From positions 7,256 through 71,255 of the forward strand of contig JANRJW010000008.1 of assembly GCA_033763775.1 (NCBI GenBank): a stretch of DNA of 64,000 nucleotides, read 5' to 3'. Below, one piece after another: positions 2,266 to 55,850 of this stretch; the stretch's first letter is position 1; each line of letters opens with the position of its first letter. The notes beneath the pieces are model-generated. The model searched no databases. It was not told where the DNA came from and worked only from the letters and a program-made list of their open reading frames with translations. The DNA comes from Alphaproteobacteria bacterium (GTDB taxonomy: Bacteria; Pseudomonadota; Alphaproteobacteria; Rickettsiales; SXRF01). Position numbers and translations under genes: made by a program.

Positions 2266-5200
2266 GATGGTGCGCGTGTTCAAGTGAAGCGGAATGAAGC
2301 GTTCCGCCAAACATCATGCGCAGCCCGACATAGAAAATCGGGGTAAGAAATAGGCCGAAGAAGGTCACACCCAGCATGCCCGAAAACACCGCCACGCCCA
2401 TATCCTGACGCATCTCCGAACCGGCGCCGCTTGAAAAGACCAGCGGCAACACACCCATGATAAAAGCAAAAGAAGTCATGAGAATGGGGCGAAGACGCAG
2501 GCGGCACGACTTGATGGCCGCGTGAAACGGCGAGAGCTTCTGCATAATCTCCAGCTCGCGAGCAAACTCCACAATTAAAATGGCGTTTTTGCAGGCAAGC
2601 CCCACGAGTACGATGAGTCCTATCTGGGTGAAGATGTTGTTATCGCGCCCGACAATCCACACACCAAAAATGGCCGATAGCAAACACATCGGCACAATCA
2701 GAATCACCGCCAGCGGCAACACCAGACTTTCATACTGCGCCGCCAGCACCATGAATACCAGCAGCACGCAAAGCGGGAAAATGAGCAGCGCCGTGTTGCC
2801 AGCTAAGATTTCCTGATAGGTGAGCTCCGTCCATTCAAACGTCATGCCCTTGGGCAAGGTTTCGCGCACGATACGCTCAATCTCGTCCTTCACTTGCCCG
2901 GTAGAATAGCCAGCCGCCGGGCTTACGTTGATATCCGCCGAGCGATAGGCGTTGTAGCGCGTGGCATTATCCGGCCCATAGCTTTCGGTGACTTTGATGA
3001 GCGCGCCGAGCGGCACCATCTCGCCAGAACTACTCCTGACTTTCAGCTGCAGCATATCGCTGGCGCGATCACGAAACTCGCTATCGGCCTGCGCGAACAC
3101 ACGGTAGGTACGGCCGAATTTATTAAAGTCATTGATGTAAGCCGAGCCGAGATAGATCTGCAGCGTGGCGAAAATATCAGTGATATTCACGCCCATCTGC
3201 TTGGCGCGCACGCGGTCAACCTTCACTTCCAGCTGCGGCACGTTAATACCGTAGAGTGAGTAAGCACCGCCCTGCGGGTCAAACACCGGCGACTGCCGCG
3301 CCTTGCCGAGAATTTCGTTTTTCACGGCATCGAGCGCTTCATAGCCAAGATCCGCACGATCCTGAATCTGCAGCTTCGCACCGCCAGTGGTCGATAGCCC
3401 CATCACCGGCGGTGGTGGCAGGGCGAGCACCGGAAAGGCCTCTTTAATCTGCATGAAATACTGCCCCATCAGCGCACCGGAAATGGCGCCAGCAGAAAGA
3501 TCGGGGGTGGTGCGCTCTTCAAAAGGCTTCAGCGATACGAAGGTGATACCGGCGCTTGGGCTATTGGTGAAGCCCTTGATGGAAAGCCCCGGAAACGCCA
3601 CTGCGCTTTGAACGCCCGGCTGCTTCATCATAATGTCCGACATTTTGCGCATCACCTCTTCGGTGCGATCCAGATTCGCGCCGTCGGGGAGCATGGCAAA
3701 GCTCACCAGATATTGCTTATCCTGCTGCGGAATGAAGCCTTTCGGAGTGAGCTGAAACAGCAGACCCGTGACACCGATGAGCACGACATAGCCCATCACA
3801 AAAGCACGCTTACGCTTAAGCGAGCTCTGCACGCCGAGCGAATAGCGCTCAGACTGGCGGCCAAAATAGCGGTTAAACAGATCAAAGCCCTGCGGCGCAC
3901 CTGCGGCGGGCGGCGTGAGCATATGCTTGATGGCAAGCACCGCGCCTATGGCCACCGACAGCCAGATAAGCACCGTAAAGCCGATGCCAACGAACATCAG
4001 CACCGGGCTGAAGCCAAGCAAACTGCCCAGTATTTTCATGATGATGATATCAGCAATGACCAGAAGCACCGCCGCCAGAAACCAGCGCCACGCATGAAAA
4101 ACGCCGCCAAAGATTTTTTCAATCAAAAGCGTGAGCTTGTCCTTGGGTAGCCCCTTGGGCTTTAGCAGCATGGCGGCGAGCGCCGGGCTTAAGGTGAGCG
4201 AATTGAACGCGGAGATAACGGTGGAAATAGCAATGGTGAGCGCGAATTGCTGGTAGAACTGGCCGGTGAGGCCGCTCATAAACGCAATCGGCACGAAGAC
4301 GGCAATCAGCGTGAGTGCAATCGCGATGATCGGGCCAGATACCTCGCGCATCGCCTGATAGGTCGCTTCAAGCGGGCTTAGGCCTTCTTCAATATTACGC
4401 TCGACATTTTCCACCACCACAATCGCATCATCCACCACAATCCCGATGGCGAGCACCAGGCCGAAGAGCGATAGCGCATTAATCGAAAAACCAAACGCAT
4501 ACATGAAGGCGAACGTGCCCACGATCGACACCGGCACCGCAAGCAGCGGAATAATCGAAGCGCGCCAGGTTTGTAAGAAAACAATCACCACCAGCACCAC
4601 CAGCGCCACTGCCTCGAGCAGGGTTTTAATCACCGCCGTGATCGAATCACGCACGAAAACTGTAGGGTCGTAGACGATGCTGTAGTCGAGTCCGGGCGGA
4701 AAATCTTTTTTTAGTTCCGCCATAGTGGCGCGAATATCATCGGAAATCTGAATGGCGTTGGAGCCGGGCGCCTGAAAAATGGGAATCGCCACCGCCGGCT
4801 TGTTATCCAGCAGCGAGCGCAGGCCATATTCCGACGCGCCCAGCTCAATGCGCGCCACATCGCGAAGGTAGGTCACGCCGCCAGTTTGCGGATCGGTCTT
4901 CAGCACAATCTCGCCAAATTCTTCTTCGGTCTGCAAGCGCCCCTGCGCGCTCACGTTCAGCTGAATCTCGGTGCCCTTCGCATAGGGCGGCCCGCCAATC
5001 ACACCAGCGGCCACCTGCACGTTCTGCTCGCGCACCGCCATCACCACATCGGTGGCGGCTAAGCCGCGCGCGGCCATTTTTTCCGGGTTCAGCCACAGGC
5101 GCATCGCGTAATCGCCGGAGCCAAACACCGCCACCTGCCCCACCCCGCGCACACGCGCGAGCGCATCTTTCACGTTCAGCACCGCGTAGTTGCGCTGATA

Positions 5201-5662
5201 GAGCATATCGCGGCTGCCATCCGGCGAGAGCAGATGCACCACCATGGTGAGATCGGGCGAACTTTTTACGGTGGTGACACCAAACTGGCGCACCTCATCA
5301 GGAAGACGTGGCAATGCCTGCGACACACGGTTTTCCACCAGCTGCTGGGCTTTGTCCGGATCGGTGCCAATTTTGAAGGTGACAGTAAGGCGCATCACAC
5401 CATCGCTGGTGCCCTGCGACGACATGTAGAGCATACCCTCGACGCCGTTAATCTGCTCTTCCAGCGGCGCGGCCACCGTTTCTGAAATCACTTTCGGGTT
5501 CGCGCCCGGATATTGCGCGGAAACTTCCACCGTGGGCGGCACAACATCAGGATATTCCGAGATGGGCATCAGCGGAATGGCGATCAGACCGGCGATAAAA
5601 ATCAGCGCCGAGAGCACTCCGGCAAAAATCGGGCGATCGACGAAAAAGCGGGAGAAGTTCAT
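2243..5662 (-). CDS. RND (HAE1/AcrB-type) efflux permease, 1139 aa, with an extra ~85-aa two-helix insertion
   Basis: N-terminus is MNFSRFFVDRPIFAGVLS. The family motif GIVVDDAIVVVEN is present. The start forms an ATGA overlap with the upstream MFP gene. See the finding on the insertion at aa ~505-589. Confidence 0.93.
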   Translation of the reverse strand: MNFSRFFVDRPIFAGVLSALIFIAGLIAIPLMPISEYPDVVPPTVEVSAQYPGANPKVISETVAAPLEEQINGVEGMLYMSSQGTSDGVMRLTVTFKIGTDPDKAQQLVENRVSQALPRLPDEVRQFGVTTVKSSPDLTMVVHLLSPDGSRDMLYQRNYAVLNVKDALARVRGVGQVAVFGSGDYAMRLWLNPEKMAARGLAATDVVMAVREQNVQVAAGVIGGPPYAKGTEIQLNVSAQGRLQTEEEFGEIVLKTDPQTGGVTYLRDVARIELGASEYGLRSLLDNKPAVAIPIFQAPGSNAIQISDDIRATMAELKKDFPPGLDYSIVYDPTVFVRDSITAVIKTLLEAVALVVLVVIVFLQTWRASIIPLLAVPVSIVGTFAFMYAFGFSINALSLFGLVLAIGIVVDDAIVVVENVERNIEEGLSPLEATYQAMREVSGPIIAIALTLIAVFVPIAFMSGLTGQFYQQFALTIAISTVISAFNSLTLSPALAAMLLKPKGLPKDKLTLLIEKIFGGVFHAWRWFLAAVLLVIADIIIMKILGSLLGFSPVLMFVGIGFTVLIWLSVAIGAVLAIKHMLTPPAAGAPQGFDLFNRYFGRQSERYSLGVQSSLKRKRAFVMGYVVLIGVTGLLFQLTPKGFIPQQDKQYLVSFAMLPDGANLDRTEEVMRKMSDIMMKQPGVQSAVAFPGLSIKGFTNSPSAGITFVSLKPFEERTTPDLSAGAISGALMGQYFMQIKEAFPVLALPPPPVMGLSTTGGAKLQIQDRADLGYEALDAVKNEILGKARQSPVFDPQGGAYSLYGINVPQLEVKVDRVRAKQMGVNITDIFATLQIYLGSAYINDFNKFGRTYRVFAQADSEFRDRASDMLQLKVRSSSGEMVPLGALIKVTESYGPDNATRYNAYRSADINVSPAAGYSTGQVKDEIERIVRETLPKGMTFEWTELTYQEILAGNTALLIFPLCVLLVFMVLAAQYESLVLPLAVILIVPMCLLSAIFGVWIVGRDNNIFTQIGLIVLVGLACKNAILIVEFARELEIMQKLSPFHAAIKSCRLRLRPILMTSFAFIMGVLPLVFSSGAGSEMRQDMGVAVFSGMLGVTFFGLFLTPIFYVGLRMMFGGTLHSASLEHAHHHEGERRE

Positions 5663-10954: not shown

Positions 10955-12219
10955 GCCAATTAGTCGCGCGCGCGCAGCTGCTGCGCTACGCGCTGCTGGG
11001 AGTGCCGCTTGGGTTTGTCGGGCTACCGCTTTATGTGCATTTGCCGAAATACTACGCGGATTTTCTGCCACTGTCGCTGGCGGCCATTGGCTTCGCGATG
11101 TTTATCACGCGGATTGTGGACTGCGTGGCCGATCCTTTCATCGGCGTGCTGTCGGATCGTCTGGCGGCGAAGCGCCGGCTACTCAGCGTCGCCGCGGCTT
11201 TGGTGATGGCGCTGGGCGTCATCGCGCTGTTCTTCCTGCCGAGCTACGCCACCAGCGAGAGCGCCATGGGGCTACTCATGCTGCTACTTTGCATCACCTA
11301 CCTTTCCTTCAGTCTTCTATCGGTGAATTTTTATGCGGGCGGGTTATCGCTTTCCACCGACCCACGCGAAACCACGCGCATCTCCGCCTGGCGCGAAGGC
11401 GCGATTATTCTGGGCGTGCTGGTGGCTTCTGCTTTGCCGCAAATACTCACAGAGGGACGCAGTAGCGAAGAAGCCTATCATCTCTTTGCGTGGATCGCGG
11501 CGGGGGTGATTATAGCCGCTTTGTTTACTCTTAAATCGCCATCATCCATTAAAACACCCCCACCCTACCCACCCCCGCAAGCAGGGGAGGTAAATTTTAG
11601 AACTGTCTGGGAAAATAAAACGCTGCGCTGGATTTTTGCGATTTTCTTTATCAACGCCATTCCGCCTTCCATCACTGCGACGCTGTTTTTATTTTTTGTC
11701 TCGGATGTGCTGGGCGCGCCGGACTCAAGCGGCGCGTTTCTTGGGCTTTATTTTTTAGCGGCGGTACTCGCCATGCCGCTATGGGTGAAGCTGGCCGCGC
11801 GCATCGGCAAGCGCCGCTCGCTGATTGGCTCGATGACGCTCGCCATCCTTTCCTTCATCTGGGCGTATGGGCTGGATAGCAGCAATAGCACCATGTTTTA
11901 TGCCATCTGCCTGCTTTCCGGCGCGGCGCTCGGCGGCGATCTGGCGGTGCTTCCCTCGCTGCTTTCAGACGCGCTGAAAGGCAAAGAACATCAAGGCGGG
12001 CTGGAGTTCGGCATCTGGAACTTCATCAGCAAATTCACCCTCGCCATGGCCGCCGGCATTGCGCTGCCGCTGCTTGCGGCGCTGGGCTATGAATCAGGCG
12101 CACGAAGCGAGGCAAGCCTTGGCGCACTCTCATTTGGCTACGCGCTGCTGCCCTGCCTCTTTAAACTCGGCGCGCTCGCACTACTTATACTAAGCCCCTT
12201 AGAGAGGAAAAACCCATGA
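10951..12219 (+). CDS. MFS (GPH-like) transporter
   Basis: About 12 hydrophobic segments. The D-rich motif after TM2 reads RIVDCVADPFIGVLSDR. Both ends have 4-nt overlaps with the neighbouring genes. Confidence 0.72.
   Translation: MSQLVARAQLLRYALLGVPLGFVGLPLYVHLPKYYADFLPLSLAAIGFAMFITRIVDCVADPFIGVLSDRLAAKRRLLSVAAALVMALGVIALFFLPSYATSESAMGLLMLLLCITYLSFSLLSVNFYAGGLSLSTDPRETTRISAWREGAIILGVLVASALPQILTEGRSSEEAYHLFAWIAAGVIIAALFTLKSPSSIKTPPPYPPPQAGEVNFRTVWENKTLRWIFAIFFINAIPPSITATLFLFFVSDVLGAPDSSGAFLGLYFLAAVLAMPLWVKLAARIGKRRSLIGSMTLAILSFIWAYGLDSSNSTMFYAICLLSGAALGGDLAVLPSLLSDALKGKEHQGGLEFGIWNFISKFTLAMAAGIALPLLAALGYESGARSEASLGALSFGYALLPCLFKLGALALLILSPLERKNP
11554..11592. repeat. Partial CTCCCCC/GGGAGG-family element inside the MFS central loop
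   Basis: ACACCCCCACCCTACCCACCCCCGCAAGCAGGGGAGG resembles the right arm of the elements at 20789-20905 and 27807-27913. It translates in frame as TPPPYPPPQAGE. Confidence 0.6.
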
Positions 12220-12747: not shown

Positions 12748-12814
12748 ATCATCCCGAGCGAAGTCGAGGGATCTTGAAGATCCCTCCACGTGCTTCGCTT
12801 GGTCGGGATGACAT
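12748..12814. repeat. Short-form GTCATCC...GGGATGAC palindromic element
   Basis: TCATCCCGAGCGAAGTCGAGGGATCTTGAAGATCCCTCCACGTGCTTCGCTTGGTCGGGATGAC is a long imperfect hairpin that fills the gap between the DUF3833 and SDR genes. Confidence 0.85.
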
Positions 12815-16329: not shown

Positions 16330-16429
16330 TCTCCTTCTCCCCTCCGGGGAGAAGGCCGGGATGAGGGGGCAAAGCCTTACCGCTAATCACTACCCCCTCA
16401 CCCTCCCCTCTCCCCAGAGGGGAGAGGGT
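16330..16429. repeat. CTCCCC/GGGAGAGG-family composite element
   Basis: Hairpins CCTTCTCCCCTCCGGGGAGAAGG and CCCTCTCCCCAGAGGGGAGAGGG flank TGAGGGGG...CCCCCTCA. It lies upstream of the second MFP gene. Confidence 0.8.
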
Positions 16430-16480
16430 TTTTTTTGGTTCCAGCTTGTCCAAACCCGCCAGTCTGATAGAGTGCTGGCC

Positions 16481-17611
16481 ATGGTTTCTAAGCGTTTGAT
16501 TCTTGGTCTGGTGGTGGTCGCTGGCAGCGCCTACGGCGCTTACAGCTATTTCCTTTCCGGCGGCGAGAGCAGCAAACAGCCGCCGCGCAGCGCGAGTGTC
16601 ACGGTTGCGGCCGCCAGCCGGCAGGATGTTCCCCTTCAGCTATCGCTGGTGGGCACGGCGGAAGCCTTTGAAACGGTCGCGGTCAAATCGCGGCTGGATT
16701 CCCAAATTACCGAGGTGGCGTTCAAGGATGGCGATTTGGTGAAGGAAGGCCAGTTGCTATTTACGCTGGATGACCGCGCGCTGGCCGCGCAGGCGCGCGA
16801 GCTGGAAGCAGAGCTTATGCAGGGCAAGGCGCAGCTGACCAACGCCCGCCTGCAATATGAACGGGCGCAGGAGCTTTTTAAAACCAACACCGTGGCACAG
16901 GCGCGGGTGGATGATACAAAGGCGGCGTTTGAAGCGCAGCAGGCGCAGGTAGCGGCAACTGCGGCCAGCCTCGAAAACGTTCGGGTCATGCTGGGCTATA
17001 GCCGCATCACCGCTCCCATCTCCGGACGCGCCGGCAGCATCCATGCCACACGCGGCAACAATGTGAAGGCCAACGATGTGGCGGCGCTGGTGGTCATTAA
17101 TCAGGTGCAGCCGCTGCGTGTGCAGGTGGCGATCCCGCAGCGCCACGTGGGCGAGGTGCGCCGCGCCATGGCCGCAGGTCAGGTTGCCGCCACCGCCACC
17201 CATGACGGCGCCGATACCCTGTCACACGGGGTACTCGATTATCTTGATAATGCCGTGGATGTCACGAGTGGCACGCTTGCTGCGCATGTACGCTTTGCCA
17301 ATGAAGACGAAGCGCTGTGGCCGGGCATGTTCCTGCGCCTCACCCTCACGCTTGGCACCGAGCAGGCAGCACTCACCATTCCTGCCGCAGCGATTCAGGG
17401 CGATGAAGGGGCGCGGTTTGTGTTTGTGGTGGATGAGGCTGGCAAAGCGAAGCGCACCAGTGTCACCGTTTCCAGAATCATGGCGGATGTCGCGGTGATT
17501 GAAAGCGGGCTGGAAGAAGGTGCCCGCGTCATCACCGATGGGCTGCTGCGGGTGAGTGATGGCAGTCAGGTGGAAATTAAGAATTCGTCATCCCGTGGAG
17601 CGGAGCAGTAG
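16481..17611 (+). CDS. RND efflux periplasmic adaptor (membrane fusion protein)
   Basis: Start taken at MVSKRLILGLVVVAGSAYG, because the ORF-track N-terminus reads through a repeat. Typical MFP hairpin and barrel regions are present. The last 8 codons and the stop lie in a repeat element. Confidence 0.85.
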   Translation: MVSKRLILGLVVVAGSAYGAYSYFLSGGESSKQPPRSASVTVAAASRQDVPLQLSLVGTAEAFETVAVKSRLDSQITEVAFKDGDLVKEGQLLFTLDDRALAAQARELEAELMQGKAQLTNARLQYERAQELFKTNTVAQARVDDTKAAFEAQQAQVAATAASLENVRVMLGYSRITAPISGRAGSIHATRGNNVKANDVAALVVINQVQPLRVQVAIPQRHVGEVRRAMAAGQVAATATHDGADTLSHGVLDYLDNAVDVTSGTLAAHVRFANEDEALWPGMFLRLTLTLGTEQAALTIPAAAIQGDEGARFVFVVDEAGKAKRTSVTVSRIMADVAVIESGLEEGARVITDGLLRVSDGSQVEIKNSSSRGAEQ

Positions 17612-17735
17612 CGCAGCGAGCACGGGATCCACGCTAAAAATGTCAGTAGACATTTTTAGACGCAAAAAGTCTTCTGACTTTTTGCTATACTGGATCCCGG
17701 ATAAATTTTGCTGCTGCAAAATTTTCCGGGATGAC
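17587..17735. repeat. Long-form GTCATCC...GGGATGAC multi-hairpin element (4 hairpins)
   Basis: GTCATCCCGTG...CACGGGATCC, then AAAAATGTCagtaGACATTTTT, then GCAAAAAGTCttctGACTTTTTGC, then GGATCCCGGATAAATTTTGCtgctGCAAAATTTTCCGGGATGAC. Near-identical modules recur at 46157-46302. Confidence 0.9.
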
Positions 17736-17746
17736 AAAAGGAAATT

Positions 17747-20788: not shown

Positions 20789-20905
20789 TTCTCCCCCCGC
20801 TTGCGGGGGAGTTAGAGGGGGGGTGATTCACCCCCACCACTCGCCTAAGAATGTTGTCAAAACAACATTCAAGGCTCATTGCCTCCCCCGCAAGCGGGAG
20901 AGGTT
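20789..20905. repeat. CTCCCCCCGC...GCGGGAGAGG-family composite element
   Basis: CTCCCCCCGCTTGCGGGGGAG hairpin, then TAGAGGGGGGTGATTCACCCCC, an AT-rich core with TGTTGTCAAAACAACA, then CCTCCCCCGCAAGCGGGAGAGG. Confidence 0.85.
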
Positions 20906-20947
20906 AAGACTTGAATTTCTAGGCTCAGCGCGCTATAGAAGCGCTCT

Positions 20948-22723: not shown

Positions 22724-22735
22724 TTTATCCCTCTC

Positions 22736-22850
22736 GTCATCCCGGCGTAGGCCGGGATCCATTTTTTTATTTCGACGCTAAAAGTCTACTGAATTTTAGC
22801 TTTACTGGATCCCGGATAAATTTTGCTACTGCTAAATTTTCCGGGATGAC
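22736..22850. repeat. Long-form GTCATCC...GGGATGAC multi-hairpin element
   Basis: GTCATCCCGGCGTAGGCCGGGATCC ... CTAAAAGTCtactGAATTTTAG ... GGATCCCGGATAAATTTTGCtactGCTAAATTTTCCGGGATGAC. Confidence 0.88.
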
Positions 22851-22855
22851 GGCGA

Positions 22856-26711: not shown

Positions 26712-26776
26712 GTCATTCCGACCGACCAACGGGAGCAGAGGAATCTTAAGATCCCTCGGCTTCGCTCGGGATGACA
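26712..26776. repeat. Short-form GTCATYCC...GGGATGAC palindromic element (degenerate left arm)
   Basis: GTCATTCCGACCGACCAACGGGAGCAGAGGAATCTTAAGATCCCTCGGCTTCGCTCGGGATGAC. Confidence 0.8.
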
Positions 26777-27785: not shown

Positions 27786-27806
27786 TGGTTGTCTTTCAAG
27801 TGATAT

Positions 27807-27913
27807 TCCTCCCCCGCTTGCGGGGGAGGCTAGGTGGGGGTGATATGGCTCACTTAATCTCATTCCAAATGAGGTCACCCCCCTCTAACTCCCCCCGCAA
27901 GCGGGGGGAGAGC
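27807..27913. repeat. CCTCCCCCGC...GCGGGGGGAGAG-family composite element
   Basis: CCTCCCCCGCTTGCGGGGGAGG, then TAGGTGGGGGTGA...TCACCCCCCTCTAA, then CTCCCCCCGCAAGCGGGGGGAG. Same architecture as 20789-20905. Confidence 0.85.
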
Positions 27914-28080
27914 ATTAGTTGGCTGTTTTTAGCAGAAATCCTACCAAAAACAAGCCCATAATCCCTTATTTTCTAGGCGCAAATCCGCCGTCACCAAATC
28001 TTCACAAAACCCACCTTGCTTACCCCCCCCCCATTTGTTAAGATGCGTTAGTTTTTTCATTTTGTTGTCTGGGATGTATT

Positions 28081-33045: not shown

Positions 33046-33160
33046 TGTCATCCCGTGACGTTTGTCAGTAGACAAACGTGCACGGGATCCAGAAAAGAAA
33101 CATGTCAGCAGACATGTTTCGTCAATATAAAAACGTGGATCCCGGCCCTCGCCGGGATGA
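33046..33160. repeat. Long-form GTCATCC...GGGATGAC multi-hairpin element
   Basis: GTCATCCCGTGACGTTTGTCagtaGACAAACGTGCACGGGATCC ... GAAACATGTCagcaGACATGTTTC ... GGATCCCGGCCCTCGCCGGGATGAC. It fills the pepA-holC spacer. Confidence 0.88.
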
Positions 33161-33164
33161 CAAC

Positions 33165-33614: not shown

Positions 33615-34348
33615 TGGAACGACAGCTTTACCAGCAGATGGCAGTGAGCGAAGATACGCATTGGTGGTTTGCGGCACGTCGAAGCATGGTTCGTGCGCTG
33701 CTGTGCAAAGCACCGAGAGTTGACCATGCCGAGCTTTTAGATGCAGGATGCGGTACTGGCGGCAACCTCGCCATGCTCTCAGAATTTGGCAAGGTTTATG
33801 GCTTTGAATATGATGACGAGGCGCGTGGACATGCAAAAGCGCGCGGTATTTGCACTATTGAGGCAGGTAGCCTGCCAAACGGCGTTCCATTTGATGGCAT
33901 CACATTTGATGGCATTTTACTGACCGATGTGCTCGAGCATATCGATGATGATAATACTACGCTTGCCTCCCTGTCTAAGCGCCTTAAACCTGGCGGGTGG
34001 CTGATCATCACTGTGCCCGCTTTTTCTTTTTTATGGACACATCACGATGTACAAAACCACCATAAGCGGCGCTACCTCAAGGCCGAGCTGGAAAGTAAAT
34101 TAGCGCAGGCCGGCTTTCACCTTACCTATTCAAGCTACTGCTTCCTGACTATTTTTCCGCTCGCACTGCTTGCGGCGTGGTGTGAAAAGCTTGGCATCGC
34201 TGGTCTCAGGGAAACCGGCCTGAAACAGCCCCACCCGCTGATCAACAGCATGCTGCGCCTTGTTGCCTCGCTGGATGTGCTGTTTATTCGCTTAGGAATC
34301 ACTCTCCCAATCGGTGTTTCCTGCATTGCACTGGCGAGAAAATCCTGA
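33614..34348 (+). CDS. Class I SAM-dependent methyltransferase
   Basis: Motif I LLDAGCGTGGNLAML and post-I FEYDDEA. Confidence 0.8.
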   Translation: MERQLYQQMAVSEDTHWWFAARRSMVRALLCKAPRVDHAELLDAGCGTGGNLAMLSEFGKVYGFEYDDEARGHAKARGICTIEAGSLPNGVPFDGITFDGILLTDVLEHIDDDNTTLASLSKRLKPGGWLIITVPAFSFLWTHHDVQNHHKRRYLKAELESKLAQAGFHLTYSSYCFLTIFPLALLAAWCEKLGIAGLRETGLKQPHPLINSMLRLVASLDVLFIRLGITLPIGVSCIALARKS

Positions 34349-34349
34349 C

Positions 34350-35981
34350 ATGTCCGCTCACCTGAATCGCCGCACCTTTGCTATCATCTCCCACCCTGAT
34401 GCGGGGAAGACAACGCTCACTGAAAAGCTACTGCTGTTTGGCGGGGCGATTCATCTGGCCGGTGCGGTCAAAGCCAAAAAAGGTGGCAAATCCGCAACCT
34501 CCGACTGGATGGCGATTGAGCAGCAGCGCGGTATTTCGGTCACCGCGTCGGTGATGACGTTTGAATATAACGGCCACACCATCAACCTGCTGGACACGCC
34601 CGGCCATAAAGATTTTTCGGAAGACACCTACCGCACGCTCACCGCCGTGGACTCCGCCGTGATGGTGCTGGACGGCGCGAAGGGCATCGAGGAGCAGACC
34701 TATAAACTCTTCGAAGTCTGCCGCCTGCGCGATACGCCGATTACCACCTTCATCAACAAAATGGATCGCGAAACACGCGAGCCGTTTGAGCTGCTTGATG
34801 AAATTGAAAGCCGATTGCAGCTTTCCGTCTGCCCGATCACCTGGCCGATCGGCATGGGCGAGCGCTTCCGCGGTTGTTTTAACCTTGTGAGCGACACGCT
34901 CTATCTGTTTGATGCCGGCGTAAACCCCTTCTCCCCCCGCCTGCGGGGGGAGCCAGAGGGGGTTGATCACCCCCCCTTCCCCCCCGCAGGCGGGGGGGTA
35001 ATAAAATATACCAGCGCAGATGACCCGGCGCTGGACGATGTTATTCCGGAAGCGGAACTGAAAAAATTCCGCGAAGAAGTAGCGATGGTTAAGGCGATTT
35101 ACCCACCCTTTAACCGCGAGCATTTCCTGGAAGGCCATGTCACGCCTGTGTTTTTTGGTAGCGCGGTGAATAACTTCGGAGTTCGCGAGCTGCTTAGCGC
35201 CATCTGCGACTATGCCCCCTCGCCCCGCCTGCAGAAAACCGAGACGCGCGAGGTGGCGCCTGAGGAGCCGAAATTCACCGGCTTTGTGTTTAAAATTCAG
35301 GCGAACATGGATAAGAACCACCGCGACCGCATCGCCTTTGTGCGGGTCTGCTCCGGAAAATATACACGCGGCATGAAAGTGCTGCATGTAAGAAGCGGCA
35401 AGACACTGGCGCTCAATAACCCTGTTTTGTTTCTGGCGCGTGAGCGCGAGCTGGCCGAAGAAGCCTGGCCGGGCGATATTCTCGGTATTCCCGGCCATGG
35501 CCACCTGCATATCGGTGATGCGCTGACCGAGGGTGAAAAGCTCTACTTCACCGGCATTCCAAGCTTTGCGCCCGAGCTTTTCCAGCGTGTGCGGCTGGAA
35601 GACCCGCTGAAATCCAAGCAGCTCAAGGAAGCGCTCACCCAGCTTTCCGAAGAAGGCGCCTCACAGATTTTCAAACCGCTCGATGGCAGCCCGTGGATTT
35701 TAGGGGTGGTGGGCGCGCTGCAGTTTGATGTGATTGCCTCGCGCCTAGCCGCCGAATATGGCGTGAAGGGCAGTTTTGAAGCCGTCTCCTACACCGCCGC
35801 GCGCTGGCTGAAAGCGAAAGACCAGAAAACGCTCGATGATTTCTTGAGCAAAAATAAATTCAGCACCGCCGAGGATGCGACCGGCCAGCTGGCCTACCTC
35901 GCACCAAACGCATGGCATCTAGAGCGCATTCAGAAAGACTTTCCCGAGATTGAGTTTTTAAGGACAAGAGAGAATCGGTAA
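34350..35981 (+). CDS. prfC: Peptide chain release factor 3, carrying a ~24-codon repeat insertion
   Basis: RRTFAIISHPDAGKTTLTEKLL, DTPGHKDF, NKMDR and FKIQANMD motifs. Confidence 0.96.
   Translation: MSAHLNRRTFAIISHPDAGKTTLTEKLLLFGGAIHLAGAVKAKKGGKSATSDWMAIEQQRGISVTASVMTFEYNGHTINLLDTPGHKDFSEDTYRTLTAVDSAVMVLDGAKGIEEQTYKLFEVCRLRDTPITTFINKMDRETREPFELLDEIESRLQLSVCPITWPIGMGERFRGCFNLVSDTLYLFDAGVNPFSPRLRGEPEGVDHPPFPPAGGGVIKYTSADDPALDDVIPEAELKKFREEVAMVKAIYPPFNREHFLEGHVTPVFFGSAVNNFGVRELLSAICDYAPSPRLQKTETREVAPEEPKFTGFVFKIQANMDKNHRDRIAFVRVCSGKYTRGMKVLHVRSGKTLALNNPVLFLARERELAEEAWPGDILGIPGHGHLHIGDALTEGEKLYFTGIPSFAPELFQRVRLEDPLKSKQLKEALTQLSEEGASQIFKPLDGSPWILGVVGALQFDVIASRLAAEYGVKGSFEAVSYTAARWLKAKDQKTLDDFLSKNKFSTAEDATGQLAYLAPNAWHLERIQKDFPEIEFLRTRENR
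34929..34999. repeat. Compact CTCCCCCCGC-family element inside prfC
   Basis: CTCCCCCCGC (34931-34940) pairs with GCGGGGGGAG (34943-34952), followed by AGGGGGTTGATCACCCCCC and CCCCCCCGCAGGCGGGGGGG. It translates as PFSPRLRGEPEGVDHPPFPPAGGG. Confidence 0.85.
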
Positions 35982-37554: not shown

Positions 37555-37609
37555 GTCATCCTGAGCGAAGCGAAGGATCTTCAGATTCCTCGCTTACACT
37601 AGGAATGAC
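37555..37609. repeat. Short-form GTCATCC...GGAATGAC palindromic element
   Basis: GTCATCCTGAGCGAAGCGAAGGATCTTCAGATTCCTCGCTTACACTAGGAATGAC. It ends 6 nt before the holin start codon. Confidence 0.82.
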
Positions 37610-38031: not shown

Positions 38032-38108
38032 AACCCTCACCCACGCGCTTTGCGCGTTTCCCTCTCCCTGAAAGGGAGAGGGTCAGGGTGAGGGTCGCTT
38101 TGCGACCC
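38032..38108. repeat. CCCTCACCC/CCCTCTCCC-family element
   Basis: CCCTCACCC...CCCTCTCCCTGAAAGGGAGAGGGTCAGGGTGAGGGTCGCTTTGCGACCC. Its reverse complement closely matches 39297-39345. Confidence 0.85.
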
Positions 38109-38117
38109 AATCGATGT

Positions 38118-38191
38118 GCGGGTGTAGTTCAATGGTAGAACGGCAGCTTCCCAAGCTGCATACGAGGGTTCGATTCCCTTCACCCGCTCCA
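38118..38191 (+). tRNA. tRNA-Gly (anticodon CCC), CCA encoded
   Basis: GCGGGTGTAGTTCAATGGTAGAACGGCAGCTTCCCAAGCTGCATACGAGGGTTCGATTCCCTTCACCCGCTCCA. The acceptor GCGGGTG pairs with CACCCGC, the anticodon loop is TTCCCAA, and the T arm is GGTTCGATTCC. Confidence 0.92.
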
Positions 38192-38844: not shown

Positions 38845-38862
38845 GTTTTACCGACGCGTTTC

Positions 38863-38975
38863 GTCATTCCCGCGAAAGCGGGAATCCATTCAAAGCCGCT
38901 TTCTGGCGGCGATAAAGTATTTTTTCTCCTCGCTACCACGGTAAGTATCTGGATCCCCGCTTTCGCGGGGATGAC
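38863..38975. repeat. Composite element: GTCATTCCCGCGAAAGCGGGAATC ... GGATCCCCGCTTTCGCGGGGATGAC
   Basis: Two terminal mini-hairpins in inverted orientation flank a 64-bp spacer. Confidence 0.85.
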
Positions 38976-39267
38976 GATGACGTAACAAAATAGGGCGCGC
39001 CTCCTCCTACGCTAAAGCTTCGGAGGACCGGCTTCGCAGTGTTTGGCGGACGTTGTTTGCATGGCTGCATTCAACTAGCGGCTGCAGGCGGGGTTGGTGC
39101 CGCGAGCAGCGCTGCTGACCCGGATGATCTGCCACACCCAAACCAGACTTTGCTTCGGCCGAAGCAAGGGTGATGATGGTGGGCAAATAGATGTTCGGGA
39201 AGGGGGAAAGTTTACGAAAAATACAATAAGCCGCCATCGCCTGAATTCGCTTTTGCAAATTCTGAAA

Positions 39268-39396
39268 CATTTTCGATTTAATCATGCACAGAGTTTGGGT
39301 CGCTAAACGACCCTCACCCTAACCCTCTCCCTAGTAGGGAGAGGGACACAGCGGCTACAGTGCTGCGGTAGAGGGTGCATGATTAAATCGAAAATG
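39268..39396. mobile_element. MITE-like 129-bp element with perfect 22-bp terminal inverted repeats enclosing a CCCTCTCCC-family repeat
   Basis: CATTTTCGATTTAATCATGCAC (39268-39289) is the exact reverse complement of 39375-39396. The interior carries GGGTCGCTAAACGACCCTCACCCTAACCCTCTCCCTAGTAGGGAGAGGG. Confidence 0.6.
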
Positions 39397-41279: not shown

Positions 41280-41293
41280 CGCTTCTTCTCCTT

Positions 41294-41317
41294 GTCATTC
41301 CTGCGAAGGCAGGAATC
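41294..41317. repeat. Solo GTCATTCC-TGCGAAGGCA-GGAATC mini-hairpin (half element)
   Basis: Same terminal module as 38863-38886 and 54789-54812. Confidence 0.7.
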
Positions 41318-41394
41318 CTGAATCTTGGGTCTGTGGGGGATTATCGTGGGTGGTTTTTAGTGGTTTTATTGGCTGAATCAAGTATTTTCAGCGC

Positions 41395-44365: not shown

Positions 44366-44895
44366 ATTTCTGTCTCCTCAAAGCGCATGGTCTGCCTGTT
44401 TTTGCGAAAATGGCCGGGCGCAAAAAAACGCTGGTGCATCACCACATGCACCCCCGGCTTCAGCTGCTCTATCGTTTCGACAGCGAAACGAAGATTATCA
44501 TAAGCATCACTGGCGCGCCCATTGGCCAGCGGCATCATCGAGCCGGTGAGAATCACGGTTTTACCTGTGCCCTGCATTTGTTTCGCAAGTTCTGCCGCCG
44601 TTTGTGCCATACGATCGGTGCCGTGGGTGACAATGATATGCTGCGCGCGGCGCTGCTTGATAAAGACCGATAGTGCATAAATCTCCACCTCGGTGAAATT
44701 TTTGCTGTCTTTCATCATCCACTGAAAAAAGCGGCAGTCCGGCGCATAGCCAAGCTCCTCCATCGCCATCGGCACCAGGCTATCCTTCAGCACAATCGCA
44801 TTTTTGGGCGGATGCTGAGGATCCGGATAGGCCTCCGCGTCAATCGTGCCGCCGGTCATGATGAAGAGAATATCTTTGGTCATAATTTCTGTCAT
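44362..44895 (-). CDS. Single-domain asparaginase-like protein (N-terminal domain only)
   Basis: MTGGTID, VTHGTDRM and ILTGSMMP correspond to the TGGTI, HGTDT and TGAMRP motifs of L-asparaginase N-domains. At 177 aa it has no C-domain. The ATG at 44895 lies in the GTCAT terminus of a repeat, and an alternative ATG is at 44883. Confidence 0.62.
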   Translation of the reverse strand: MTEIMTKDILFIMTGGTIDAEAYPDPQHPPKNAIVLKDSLVPMAMEELGYAPDCRFFQWMMKDSKNFTEVEIYALSVFIKQRRAQHIIVTHGTDRMAQTAAELAKQMQGTGKTVILTGSMMPLANGRASDAYDNLRFAVETIEQLKPGVHVVMHQRFFAPGHFRKNRQTMRFEETEI

Positions 44896-44964
44896 CTTGA
44901 GCGAGCACAGCGAGTCGAAAGATCTTTTAAAAGCATCAGATCCCTCGGCTACGCTCGGGATGAC
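44891..44964. repeat. Short-form GTCATC...GGGATGAC palindromic element
   Basis: GTCATCTTGAGCGAGCACAGCGAGTCGAAAGATCTTTTAAAAGCATCAGATCCCTCGGCTACGCTCGGGATGAC. Confidence 0.82.
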
Positions 44965-44966
44965 AC

Positions 44967-46142
44967 CTACTCACTTTTAAACGCCTGAAGTCCGGTAATC
45001 GCGCGCCCTAAAATCAGCGCGTGGATATCATGCGTGCCTTCATAGGTGTTCACGCTTTCCAGATTCATCACATGGCGGATGACGTGATACTCATCGGCGA
45101 TGCCGTTGCCGCCATGCATATCACGCGCCACGCGCGCCATTTCCAGCGCTTTACCCGCGGAGTTGCGCTTGATGATCGAGATCATATCGGGGTGCCATCT
45201 GTCCTCGTCAATCAGCCGCCCAACGCGCAGGCAGGCCTGCAGGCCGAGTGCGATCTCCACCAGCATATCGGCCAGTTTTTTCTGGATGAGCTGGTTGGCG
45301 GCGAGCGGTTTTCCGAATTGCTTGCGATCCATCACATAGTTGCGCGCTGCCTCGTAGCAGAACTCCGCCGCGCCCAGCGCCCCCCAGCCAATGCCATAGC
45401 GCGCTTTGTTGAGGCAGGAAAATGGGCCTTTCAGACCTTTCACGTCGGGCAAGATATTATCTAGCGGCACGAACACATCCTGCATCGAGATCATGCCGGT
45501 GATCGACGCGCGAAGCGACATCTTGCCTTCGATTTTCGGCGCGGTGAGGCCTTTCATATTTTTTTCCAGAATAAAGCCGCGAATCTCCCCGTCCAGCTTT
45601 GCCCAGATGATAAAAATATCGGCAATCGGCGAATTGGTAATCCAGTTTTTCGCGCCGTTTAAGATGAAGCCGCCATCCACCTTTTTCGCATTCGTCACCA
45701 TGCTGGAAGGGTCGGAGCCGTGGTCGGGCTCGGTGAGGCCAAAACAGCCGATCAGCTCGCCGGTTGCCAGTTTTGGCAGATATTTATCTTTCTGCGCCTG
45801 CGTGCCAAACGTGTAAATCGGGTGCATGACCAGCGAAGACTGCACCGAAAGCGCCGAGCGATAGCCGGAATCCACCCACTCCACCTCGCGGCAGATCAGC
45901 CCCATCGCCACATGGCTCACACCCGCACAGCCATAGCCTTTAATCGTGGAGCCAAACAGCCCGAGTGCGCCCATCTCGCGCATGATGGCGGGGTCGAAAT
46001 GCTCGTGGCGGCTGGCTTCCAGTACACGCGGCATCAGCTTATCACGCGCATAGCCACGCGCCGTATCGCGCACCATGCGCTCTTCGTCGGTCAGCTGGGA
46101 TTCAAGGTCGAAAGGGTCGAAGGGATTGAGGTTTTTCAGCAT
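44967..46142 (-). CDS. gcdH: Glutaryl-CoA dehydrogenase (acyl-CoA dehydrogenase family)
   Basis: [35 protein letters not shown] and a C-terminal YEGTHDIH. The overall pattern matches GCDH. Confidence 0.82.
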
Positions 46143-46156
46143 GTCATCTGTTTTAC

Positions 46157-46302
46157 GTCATCCTGAGGATTTTGTCAGCAGACAAAATCCGTGAGGATCC
46201 ATTTTAAAATGTCAGCAGACATTTTAAACGCAAAAAGTCTGCTGACTTTTTGCTATGCTGGATCCCGGAAAATTTTGCTGCTGCAAAATTTTCCGGGATG
46301 AC
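46157..46302. repeat. Long-form GTCATCC...GGGATGAC multi-hairpin element (4 hairpins)
   Basis: GTCATCCTGAGGATTTTGTCagcaGACAAAATCCGTGAGGATCC, TTAAAATGTCagcaGACATTTTAA, GCAAAAAGTCtgctGACTTTTTGC, GGATCCCGGAAAATTTTGCtgctGCAAAATTTTCCGGGATGAC. Confidence 0.9.
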
Positions 46303-46305
46303 GGC

Positions 46306-46542
46306 TCACACTAACAAATTCAAAATCGTACCGCGATCCCACGTCGAACCCTGACGCAGCGCCGCCACAGCGCTACGGATCAGTGTCGCCAGCGACTCTT
46401 CGGCGGGGATGATGTTGAGGCTCGCACGCTTTGGAACTGGAACCGGCGCTTCACGCTCGCTTTGCTGCGATCGGCGCTGGGTGGATGGCTTCACGCCTCC
46501 AGAACTGGCGCCAATGCGGCTTGGATTGATGTTGATAGTCAT
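46306..46542 (-). CDS. Hypothetical small protein (78 aa)
   Basis: ORF with plausible composition but no clear Shine-Dalgarno and no motif. It is flanked by repeat elements on both sides. Confidence 0.4.
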   Translation of the reverse strand: MTININPSRIGASSGGVKPSTQRRSQQSEREAPVPVPKRASLNIIPAEESLATLIRSAVAALRQGSTWDRGTILNLLV

Positions 46543-46627: not shown

Positions 46628-47506
46628 ATGTTTCTCGTCGCCGCTTTTTATCATTTTTTTGATTTTCCGGATTTTCGTGCCCATCAGCAGCCGCTGCTTT
46701 CACTGCTGAAATCGCAGGGCATCAAAGGCTCGATATTAATTGCGGATGAAGGCTTCAACGGCACGATCTCCGGCACCCAGCCGGCCGTGCACGCGGTGCT
46801 CGAGCGCCTCAAACACATCGGCGGTGCGTTTGAGCATAAGGAAAGTTTTTTTGAGAAGCAGCCTTTTGGCAAAGCGAAAGTAAGGCTTAAAAAGGAGCTG
46901 ATTTCGCTTGGTGAAGCCGCTTTCGTTCGTCATCCCCGCTTCGTGCGGGGATCTAAGGCCGCAGAGCTTGATGGCTCAGGATCCCCGCTCAAGGCGGGGG
47001 TGACAGTGGGTGATTATGTTGAACCGAAAGACTGGAACGCGCTGATTAGCGACCCCGATACCATCGTGCTTGATACACGCAATAGTTACGAGACGTATCT
47101 TGGAACATTCGCGCGCGCGATAGACCCAAACACCAGAAACTTCAAAGAGCTACCGGCATTTGTTCGCGAAACACTGCAGGACAAGAAAGATAAAAAAATT
47201 GCCACCTTCTGCACCGGCGGCATTCGCTGCGAAAAATTCACCGCGTGGATGAAAGCCGAAGGTTTTGAAAACGTGTATCACTTAAAAGGCGGCATCCTGA
47301 AATATCTGGAAGAAATTCCAAGAGAAGAAAGTTTGTGGAACGGCGAGTGCTACGTCTTTGATGAGCGCGTGGCGGTCGGCCATGGGCTTGCGCCATCGCA
47401 GACCGCGAGCTCCTGCACCGCCTGCGGCCATACGCTCAAAGAACAAGATCATCGTTCTCCCTTATATAAGGAGAATGAATCATGTCCACATTGCATTGCG
47501 CGCTGA
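46628..47506 (+). CDS. trhO: Rhodanese-domain protein of the YceA/TrhO (UPF0176) family, carrying a ~25-codon repeat insertion
   Basis: AAFYHFFDF, ADEGFNGTISG, DTRNSYE, the rhodanese loop FCTGGIRCEK and C-terminal CxxC motifs. Confidence 0.8.
   Translation: MFLVAAFYHFFDFPDFRAHQQPLLSLLKSQGIKGSILIADEGFNGTISGTQPAVHAVLERLKHIGGAFEHKESFFEKQPFGKAKVRLKKELISLGEAAFVRHPRFVRGSKAAELDGSGSPLKAGVTVGDYVEPKDWNALISDPDTIVLDTRNSYETYLGTFARAIDPNTRNFKELPAFVRETLQDKKDKKIATFCTGGIRCEKFTAWMKAEGFENVYHLKGGILKYLEEIPREESLWNGECYVFDERVAVGHGLAPSQTASSCTACGHTLKEQDHRSPLYKENESCPHCIAR
46929..47004. repeat. GTCATCCCCGC...GCGGGGGTGAC element inside trhO
   Basis: GTCATCCCCGCTTCGTGCGGGGATC ... GGATCCCCGCTCAAGGCGGGGGTGAC has the same two-mini-hairpin layout as 38863-38975. 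It translates as RHPRFVRGSKAAELDGSGSPLKAGV. Confidence 0.82.
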
Positions 47507-54746: not shown

Positions 54747-54788
54747 GAGGGTGTTCTAGTTTGGTGTTCGCCTCACCCTACCTTTTTT

Positions 54789-54872
54789 GTCATTCCCGCG
54801 AAAGCGGGAATCCAGCCATAGTTACTCTGGATCCCGGATCGCGCTCGCGGCTGCGCGCTTGTCCGGGATGAC
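54789..54872. repeat. Composite element GTCATTCCCGCGAAAGCGGGAATC ... GGATCCCGGATCGCGCTCGCGGCTGCGCGCTTGTCCGGGATGAC
   Basis: Read directly. Its right arm (54822-54872) encodes the last ~16 codons and the stop of xerD. Confidence 0.85.
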
Positions 54873-55850
54873 GCGGCGAGAAAGCGGATGTTTTTCTTCG
54901 ACCAGCTGTTTCAGGTGAAGGCCAGCGACATGCGTGTAGATCTGGGTGGTAGCGATGTCGCTATGACCAAGCAGCTCCTGAATCACTCGCAGGTCGGCGC
55001 CGCCTTCCAGCAGGTGGGTCGCGAAGCTGTGGCGCAGCGCGTGCGGTGATATTTTTTCGGGATTAATCCCTGCCTTGATCGCCAGCTCTTTCAGCATGAC
55101 GCCAAACTGCTGGCGTGTGATATGACCACTCGCGCGGTGGTAGGGAAACAGGTAGGTGGATGACGGATGGCGGTTGACGGATGGCGACGAGGCGGATTTT
55201 TTTCTTTTTTCCTTCTCATTCGTCATCCGGGCTCCGTTATCCTGAAGAAACATATCCCTGACTTTCAAATAGGAAGCCAGTGCCAGCCTTGCTTTAGCGC
55301 CCAGCGGCACAAGACGTTCCTTGCTGCCTTTGCCACGAACCAGCATGAAATCCTGCTTATGCACCGCAGATAGCGGCAGCGACACCAGTTCAGACACACG
55401 CAGCCCCGCCCCGTAGACCAGCTCAAGCATGGCAGAAAGCCTGAGTCCTTTCGGACTATCGTCGAGCGCCGCGCACTCCAGCAGCAGGTGAATGTCATCA
55501 GCGGTGAGCACCTGCGGCAATGTTTTGGCAAGGCGCGGTGCTGCCACCGTGGCGGCAGGGTTATCTCGGCGCAGCTTTTCACTGTAAAGAAACTGAAAAA
55601 ACTGCTTGATGGCAGACAGCCTGCGCGCCTGAGTCTGCGGCGAAAGACCTCGTGCGCTGAGGGTGGCAAGATACGCCTCAATCGCCTGCGAGCGAAGATG
55701 GCTGAGACGCAGTTTATGCTGCTTGCCATAAGCAAGAAAATCTTCAAGATCACGCCGGTAAGCCGCCACGGTATGGCCGGAGGCGGCGCGTTCAGCGGCC
55801 ATCATCTCCAGAAAGGCGTCGAGCTGATTACTGGCTGACAGCCCTGACAT
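54822..55850 (-). CDS. xerD: Tyrosine site-specific recombinase XerD
   Basis: SPHALRHSFATHLLEGGADLRVIQELLGHSDIATTQIYTHV is the catalytic R-H-R-Y region. The gene neighbours aroK-aroB. It has an extra ~20-aa segment (aa ~204-231) and a C-terminal extension. Confidence 0.85.
   Translation of the reverse strand: MSGLSASNQLDAFLEMMAAERAASGHTVAAYRRDLEDFLAYGKQHKLRLSHLRSQAIEAYLATLSARGLSPQTQARRLSAIKQFFQFLYSEKLRRDNPAATVAAPRLAKTLPQVLTADDIHLLLECAALDDSPKGLRLSAMLELVYGAGLRVSELVSLPLSAVHKQDFMLVRGKGSKERLVPLGAKARLALASYLKVRDMFLQDNGARMTNEKEKRKKSASSPSVNRHPSSTYLFPYHRASGHITRQQFGVMLKELAIKAGINPEKISPHALRHSFATHLLEGGADLRVIQELLGHSDIATTQIYTHVAGLHLKQLVEEKHPLSRRVIPDKRAAASAIRDPE

Follow-up and report, generated by a model that had tools for sequence, protein, structure and literature searches.

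Between a 78-aa ORF (46306-46542, - strand) and an acyl-CoA dehydrogenase gene (44967-46142, - strand) of an uncultured freshwater alphaproteobacterium, the entire gap is occupied by a long multi-hairpin element (46156-46303), and the locus raises the question of what kind of element this is and whether its hairpins are kept as DNA or as RNA. The element, here called D, was studied within a 64-kb stretch of DNA that was analysed as a whole (the window), in which genes identified by Pfam include a GTA holin, TrcR and a class II ribonucleotide reductase. Elements of this type are inverted dimers of CGTC-tagged REPs, a lineage-specific version of a known repeat class and not a new class.

Long multi-hairpin copies number four in the window (17587-17735, 22736-22850, 33046-33160 and 46157-46302), at the positions given by an earlier, sequence-only reading of this DNA and with the termini that it described (left, GTCATCC(C/T)G; right, CCGGGATGAC) and GGATCC landmarks inside. 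The CCGGGATGAC decamer, allowing at most one mismatch, was matched 16 times in the window (3.5 expected). The apex GTCWNYWGAC was found at 7 sites, every one within the four elements (13 strand matches, 1.4 expected), and together with a degenerate apex at 22784 (GTCTACTGAA) these make up the eight hairpins that had been tallied; three right-arm GC-TGCT/TACT-GC hairpins were also found in the elements. Folded as single-stranded DNA, both strands of D reached -52 to -53 kcal/mol, with z = -13.1 and -14.7 relative to shuffles, and the other three copies gave z = -10.7, -7.9 and -10.2.

The left CGTC REP of D (46156-46200, + strand) has the tag CGTC, the base stem ATCCT/AGGAT and the tail CC, and in place of the usual 4-5 nt loop it carries a nested hairpin, GGATTTTGTC-AGCA-GACAAAATCC (46167-46190). 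Its spacer contains the hairpins H2 (46203-46228, + strand; TTTAAAATGTC-AGCA-GACATTTTAAA), with an A-G-N-A loop on the + strand, and H3 (46230-46253, - strand; GCAAAAAGTC-TGCT-GACTTTTTGC), with an A-G-N-A loop on the - strand. The right CGTC REP (46260-46303, - strand) reads CGTCATCCCGG...CCGGGATCC on the - strand and carries the nested hairpin AAAATTTTGC-AGCA-GCAAAATTTT. Copy A (17586-17736) is a full inverted dimer between HlyD-family and AcrB-family genes (both + strand); the stop codon of the upstream ORF (17609-17611) falls within its left-REP loop, and the start codon of the downstream gene lies 12 nt past the element. Copy B (22735-22851) is composed of a short left REP (loop GTAG, a strict match to the Ssn-related motif, SRM), H3 and a long right REP. 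Copy C (33046-33162), which sits between pepA and holC, is the mirror image of B: its long REP contains the nested hairpin ACGTTTGTC-AGTA-GACAAACGT, and a single spacer hairpin separates this REP from a short one. As had been claimed, copies occur in both orientations relative to the flanking co-directional genes, A in the same sense and B, C and D in the opposite sense.

A long element begins with the left REP, in which a hairpin is often nested, and continues through a CCAGAAAAG-type linker, H2, a CGTC...GACG spacer and H3 to the right REP with its nested hairpin. The sequence-only reading had described the hairpin loops as orientation-free (A/T)GC(A/T) tetraloops; they instead depend on the half, being A-G-N-A in the left one and T-N-C-T in the right one. 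A covariance model built from the right half matched the left halves of A and D on the opposite strand (51-54 bits), and each long element is thus an inverted dimer of one unit. This unit consists of a REP plus an AT-rich hairpin, and two units face each other with their tags outward; B and C contain one full unit and a short REP, in mirror orientations. The A-G-N-A hairpins are integral to the CGTC elements: 61 of 70 were located within 130 nt of a tag, the remaining 9 represented background density, and none was found in 120 unrelated loci. An independent small mobile palindrome was considered as an explanation for this hairpin and rejected, since away from a CGTC tag none occurred above background density.

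Approximately 22 terminal modules were located in the window, in 11 intergenic elements (10 inverted dimers and one single copy); the four copies first recognised are real but form a subfamily of this set and not the whole family. Every module follows one plan, with an unpaired (C/T)GTC tag, a stem of A-T, T-A and then (C/T)CC.../...GG(A/G), and the tail CCA. The listed modules read CGTCAT or TGTCAT at the tag (ATCAT in a degenerate copy at 12748), AT(C/T)CC.../...GG(A/G)AT in the stem and CCA(T/G/C) after it; 10 of the 11 window elements are dimeric, and all 11 are intergenic. Besides the four long copies, short dimers were found at 12748-12812 (GCGAAG-type loops), 26712-26775, 37555-37609 and 44891-44964 (at the same site in the relative L149, with another repeat instead in the relative L123). 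Further dimers lie at 38862-38976, where both modules come within 1-2 mismatches of the Neisseria NTS consensus and the left is an exact dRS3, and at 54788-54873, where an NTS-like left module is combined with a right module containing a GC-rich nested hairpin and the element abuts the 3' end of a XerD-like gene. A single REP is present at 41293-41318 (+ strand). When the right-half covariance model was run over the whole window without filters, it recovered the four copies and one GC-rich variant (54784-54872) and no other full copies. By our own extrapolation, about 22 modules per 64 kb would amount to several hundred modules per genome.

In short modules the loop is 3-4 nt (e.g. GTAG, or the AAA of GCGAAAGCG). 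Short modules conform to the 4-5 nt loop that is usual for CGTC REPs (e.g. 22736 with GTAG; 38863) and long modules do not, their loop being a nested AT-rich hairpin of 22-30 nt; the inner region measured at least 15 nt in 24 of 37 modules from the lineage. A single CGTC REP, GTCATCCCCGCTTCGTGCGGGGATC, was also noted at window positions 46929-46953 inside a UPF0176/rhodanese gene (46628-47506, + strand), with 8 of 8 stem pairs formed; it occupies the variable linker of the protein, and the linker of the L123 orthologue is different and shorter at that place.

CGTC-tagged REPs were defined as families CGTC-1 to CGTC-4 by Di Nocera, De Gregorio and Rocco (2013, PMC3733652). Their tag is CGTC, or else TGTC or CCTC, their stem of 8-9 bp opens with an A-T and a T-A pair, 4-5 nt form the loop, and a 3-nt tail, mostly CCA, follows. 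According to the same work, they occur mostly as inverted dimers with spacers of 20-100 bp, some of them structured, flanked by ORFs that are unidirectional or convergent, in mainly alphaproteobacterial hosts, with occasional copies inside genes and without a dedicated transposase, and are equivalent to dRS3 of Neisseria and RPE-4/6 of Rickettsia (PMC3733652). The elements described here have in common with CGTC-1 to CGTC-4 the tag, the 8-9 bp stem with A-T then T-A, the CCA tail, dimers with 20-100 bp spacers, an alphaproteobacterial host, a position between genes of the same direction, copies that occasionally lie in-frame within genes, and the absence of a neighbouring transposase. Some CGTC dimers of A. 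tumefaciens have two stem-loops in the spacer, as these elements do. The loop sets the two apart, being 4-5 nt in CGTC-1 to CGTC-4 and a nested 22-30 nt A-G-N-A hairpin in the long copies here, where similar hairpins stand in the spacer.

Judged by its sequence, the CGTC module is the same as dRS3/NTS in Neisseria, RPE-4/6 in Rickettsia and the SRM found across bacteria. Exact dRS3 (ATTCCCN8GGGAAT) occurred twice in the window against 0.02 expected, the Neisseria NTS consensus with at most 2 mismatches in three window modules against 0 expected, and the strict SRM four times against 0.29 expected. The flanking G and C were conserved in 10 of 10 modules, and long modules fail the SRM pattern on loop length only (published limit ≤5 nt). 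The motif is shared with NTS/SRM, including the GTC upstream and the C after the palindrome that are critical for cleavage and binding; the NTS/SRM-SsnA pair does not depend on the identity of the loop and accepts an extended loop in vitro, and the long modules here lie outside the published SRM pattern.

Neisserial NIMEs (dRS3 - RS - dRS3) are likewise low-GC units bounded by inverted dRS3-type hairpins, two exact dRS3 being present here, but they form long arrays with RS units of 50-150 bp and are described as Neisseria-specific, whereas the present elements are isolated alphaproteobacterial dimers with structured spacers. Each of them works like a NIME unit, with a dimer-plus-spacer layout, but with no arrays and a host other than Neisseria, and is not classed as one. 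REPINs and BIMEs resemble them as inverted REP doublets that fold into a long hairpin, are intergenic, persist vertically and are presumed to be single-stranded DNA substrates; those associated with RAYTs have a GTAG tag and a Y1 (HUH) transposase, and neither is found in the window. RPE-4 and RPE-6 of Rickettsia contain the same CGTC module and insert in-frame into genes, as also occurs in this lineage (nrdJ of L123), but belong to another host group and are without the A-G-N-A nested hairpins. A MITE of a DDE transposon would have inverted termini, which are present here, and was rejected because the four copies have no target-site duplication and the window has no DDE transposase; a phage origin was rejected because no match was obtained in viral contigs.

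Modules in other taxa were sought by scanning contigs with GTCATCCCGN{4,34}CGGGATCC, a loose pattern for which by our own estimate about 2000 chance matches are expected. Among the matches listed, the module with a variable apex was present in Rickettsia (endosymbionts), Coxiellaceae, Bosea, Bradyrhizobium, Sulfurovaceae and candidate-phyla-radiation (CPR) loci, and apex-extended modules with GC-rich nested hairpins were present in several other alphaproteobacteria. A left half-REP (about 20 nt with the tag) stands in three tandem copies before one complete hairpin in Coxiellaceae and in a gammaproteobacterial MAG (L098 7832-7901; L086 7517-7586). Loci with REPs in direct arrays, at a period of 103-107 nt, were seen elsewhere (L048 46-287; L080 7-145).

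Whether the stems are held by structure or by descent was judged on 23 distinct right halves, 4 from the window and 19 from metagenome contigs of relatives; a lineage-specific DNA pattern retrieved 20 metagenome contigs and nhmmer gave 26 distinct matches, from which the 23 right halves were used. Paired cells made up 97.7% of this set and 88.5% in shuffles, both-side changes were found at 17 of 27 pairs, and none of 500 shuffles was as high on any measure. When the 3' partners were slid by 1-3 columns as a control, at most 5 pairs were changed on both sides. The right-arm helix is biased in this comparison, since the 3' arm of the right REP had been prescribed in the search pattern; H3 alone is unbiased, being unconstrained by the pattern, and showed both-side changes at 7 of 10 pairs across the 23 copies. 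Syntenic contigs of relatives were also compared with the window. In the L123 orthologue of D, with flanks about 84% identical, compensatory substitutions were found in three of the four hairpins. The nested 7-bp stems of the left REPs are unrelated yet perfectly paired (GCGAAGC/GCTTCGC, GCCAGTC/GACTGGC, GGCTGTC/GACAGCC). The sequence-only reading had proposed compensatory stems, and structure conserved rather than sequence, from four copies, which alone are too few to judge; with 23 right halves both statements are borne out. Among doubly changed cells, 33 of 44 needed transversions on both sides, and one-sided cells numbered only 5.

Of strand-specific binding and cleavage of the motif as single-stranded DNA, the imperfect pairs gave the only hint, and an indirect one. 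On the A-G-N-A strand, which is the tagged strand, G.T-type mismatches outnumbered A.C-type mismatches 13 to 1 over both halves, in a count that includes some related copies. Among the GC-rich base stems of 215 modules, the lineage gave 5 G.T-type to 4 A.C-type mismatches and the other taxa 10 to 18; with no asymmetry there, the strand signal is limited to the AT-rich hairpins. The tagged strands of the two halves are opposite strands, so one transcript cannot account for the G.T bias, and a hairpin made by each strand's own 5' half can account for a mismatch bias that flips between the halves. From the transversion compensations and this flip, a DNA-level role is favoured. Rfam 15 searched over the window returned two tRNAs only at threshold, the focal region gave generic hairpin matches of at most 23 bits (gathering thresholds 42-117 bits), and no intrinsic terminator was predicted and no terminator-like site was found.

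An enzyme that could act on such DNA is known from Neisseria. SsnA is a 94-aa GIY-YIG protein that binds the NTS/SRM motif (Chenal et al. 2025, PMC11893778); genes of this kind encode single-domain GIY-YIG proteins (cd10448) and often have the motif on their flanks. It binds the hairpin solely as single-stranded DNA and on the tagged strand alone, RNA and the reverse strand not being bound, cuts a few nt upstream of the motif with the 3 bases before the palindrome and the C after it being critical, and tolerates loop replacement and stem extension; among genomes with more than 200 SRMs, 81% encode an Ssn (PMC11893778). On L066 (Ciceribacter), a 95-aa GIY-YIG ORF (Pfam PF01541, 4e-16) was found with CGTC dimers on both sides, and the published association of Ssn with its motif is thereby reproduced. 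A motif regex, tblastn, Pfam and a 120-sequence profile were applied to find a GIY-YIG/Ssn gene, and none of them detected one in the 64-kb window or in the related contigs, which total about 314 kb; a search for Ssn homologues returned Rhizobiaceae proteins only, none on a contig of this lineage. RAYT, IS200/IS605 and IS110 genes were absent from the window and the same approximately 314 kb, and Pfam on 65 non-overlapping window ORFs gave no GIY-YIG, Y1/RAYT, IS200/IS605, IS110 or DDE protein. As no candidate gene lies in the window or these related contigs, the enzyme partner is taken from the literature. An integrase-domain gene (54822-55850) was considered as the enzyme of the elements and rejected as a XerD-like housekeeping recombinase, the only recombinase of the window. 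As an aside, on L066 (3212-4018 and 4131-7797) the Ssn-like GIY-YIG gene with its flanking CGTC dimers directly adjoins the nrdJ orthologue, and nrdJ of the window starts 1.3 kb from D; the parallel is probably a coincidence.

The best explanation, to which we assign a probability of roughly 60%, is that these are CGTC REP dimers acting as single-stranded DNA and presented to an Ssn-type nuclease encoded elsewhere in the genome. Their working form would most likely be single-stranded: on each strand, the 5' half of the element would fold and present a tagged REP to a small GIY-YIG nuclease of the Ssn type, which, if it behaves as published, would bind the stem and the C after it and nick a few nt upstream of the tag (PMC11893778). 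The inner stems would be free to vary in sequence but would have to remain self-complementary for the short recognition stem to close, which would explain the covariation. What was observed directly in these sequences is the family to which the elements belong, their architecture and covariation, the strand asymmetry and the turnover from one relative to another; Ssn binding, cleavage and tolerance of loop extension are taken from the published work (PMC11893778), and that this genome encodes an Ssn acting on these copies, as well as the reason for which the stems are kept, is what we infer. With tags outward, there is one forward motif per strand, and a simple two-cut excision on one strand is left unexplained. 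Within this framework we tentatively suggest, at somewhat less than even odds, that the nested A-G-N-A hairpins are natural loop-extended Ssn substrates that strand-specific selection on single-stranded DNA keeps foldable, the two halves being read on opposite strands. If so, they would provide in vivo evolutionary evidence that these repeats work as single-stranded DNA structures, and would be the natural equivalent of the programmable hairpins, split or extended, engineered in vitro by Chenal et al. (PMC11893778).

The hairpins could alternatively act at the RNA level in operon mRNA, as stabilisers, processing sites or attenuators, with the covariation reflecting selection on RNA structure. 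Every copy lies between co-directional genes a few nt from stop and start codons and is therefore almost certainly transcribed, the elements fold very strongly, some long palindrome is present at the same intergenic site in every relative examined, and an RNA role has been argued for many REPs by Di Nocera et al. (PMC3733652). Against this, copies stand in both orientations relative to transcription, G.T-type mismatches fall on opposite strands in the two halves, and neither a terminator-like site nor an Rfam family at threshold was found. Compensatory change in RNA helices typically passes via wobble intermediates; here the compensations are mainly transversions and such intermediates are few. 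An RNA role therefore appears unlikely, and of the two levels that had been proposed for the hairpin, DNA is supported and RNA disfavoured by the Rfam, terminator, transversion and mismatch results.

Perfect palindromes can be maintained by arm-to-arm template switching without selection, and the elements may by the same token be functionless selfish or relic palindromes whose arms are kept complementary by intrastrand template switching or arm-to-arm conversion. The dominance of double transversions and the rarity of one-sided changes are what would be seen if a change in one arm were copied in a single event, the paralogues are only 72-90% identical, which implies no recent burst, and CGTC families may be going extinct (Di Nocera et al., PMC3733652). 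Template switching would not, however, preserve the asymmetric tag, the tail and the A-G-N-A loops, all of which are conserved across copies and phyla, and selection on one strand is further indicated by the strand-specificity of the G.T bias; we regard this origin as quite unlikely. The sequence-only reading had also proposed a REPIN-like substrate for a RAYT or IS200/IS605 (HUH, Y1) transposase. Inverted REP doublets that fold into long hairpins, with no visible target-site duplication at their ends, are in keeping with such a substrate, but the tag is CGTC and not GTAG, no Y1_Tnp domain was detected in any of the 65 window ORFs, and no RAYT or IS200 gene flanked by CGTC REPs was found by Di Nocera et al. 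(2013, PMC3733652), so that this enzyme is very improbable and the claim is not supported.

An Ssn-type nuclease acting on single-stranded CGTC REP dimers, the preferred explanation, bears on repeats of wide occurrence, CGTC REPs, dRS3 and SRMs being among the most widespread bacterial repeats, with an enzyme partner identified only in 2025. Two points are of some interest, the nested-hairpin elaboration and the strand-flipping mismatch bias. The lineage is a clean natural dataset, with a constant recognition base and nested stems that drift under a pairing constraint, a combination that helps to define the requirements of the nuclease. The published search pattern, with its loop of at most 5 nt, under-counts the family and misses the nested-hairpin elaboration. 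The mismatch bias is an inexpensive computational test of single-stranded DNA versus RNA that is applicable genome-wide. In practical terms, assemblies break at these elements, and in this lineage in-frame insertions of them occur in essential genes.

No target-site duplications were found at the four copies, and filled and empty sites differed too much in sequence for the junctions to be fixed by comparison. The window and L123 both carry the long element at the focal site; there is a short CGTC dimer there in a relative with 88% acyl-CoA dehydrogenase protein identity, and there are unrelated long palindromes in relatives with 96% and 85% identity in the same protein. The orthologous site either needs a hairpin or attracts palindromic insertions. 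The other window dimers show patchy presence and absence among relatives, and paralogue identity is 72-90%; the family is old, with slow turnover. At the site orthologous to 46143-46305, the unrelated long palindromes that stand in relatives without the element read GTCGTTAGTC... in L149 (953-1036) and consist of GTTACCA-type heptads in L153 (9907-10000).

In L123, a CGTC REP dimer (3711-3778) lies in-frame in nrdJ, the class II ribonucleotide reductase gene (1899-5633, - strand), and adds 21 residues (GHPVASEARAQDPAQSLRASQ) that the window orthologue is without; the insertion resembles the RPEs of Rickettsia. The CGTC repeat family fragments short-read assemblies of the lineage, and the assemblies of close relatives break inside the focal element (L148, GCA_947459535.1, at position 1; L122 at position 1).

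Two other repeat families were encountered in the window. One, unrelated and palindromic, consists of CTCCCCCCGC-NNGC-GGGGGGAG plus GGGGG-TGATCA-CCCCC and has sites at 34929-35000, 11558-11595, 20789-20907 and 27797-27921; the copy at 34929-35000 lies in-frame in prfC/RF3 (34314-35981, + strand) and contributes about 27 extra residues (GVNPFSPRLRGEPEGVDHPPFPPAGGG) that are absent from the L123 orthologue. The other, CCCTCTCCC-N4-GGGAGAGGG, is present at 38056-38119 and 39286-39349 and also at 16406-16431. Its 64-nt arms at the first two sites, 84% complementary, bracket 1.2 kb containing a tRNA, a PagL gene and a CGTC dimer, and in L123 it is this family that takes the place of the CGTC dimer at window positions 44891-44964.
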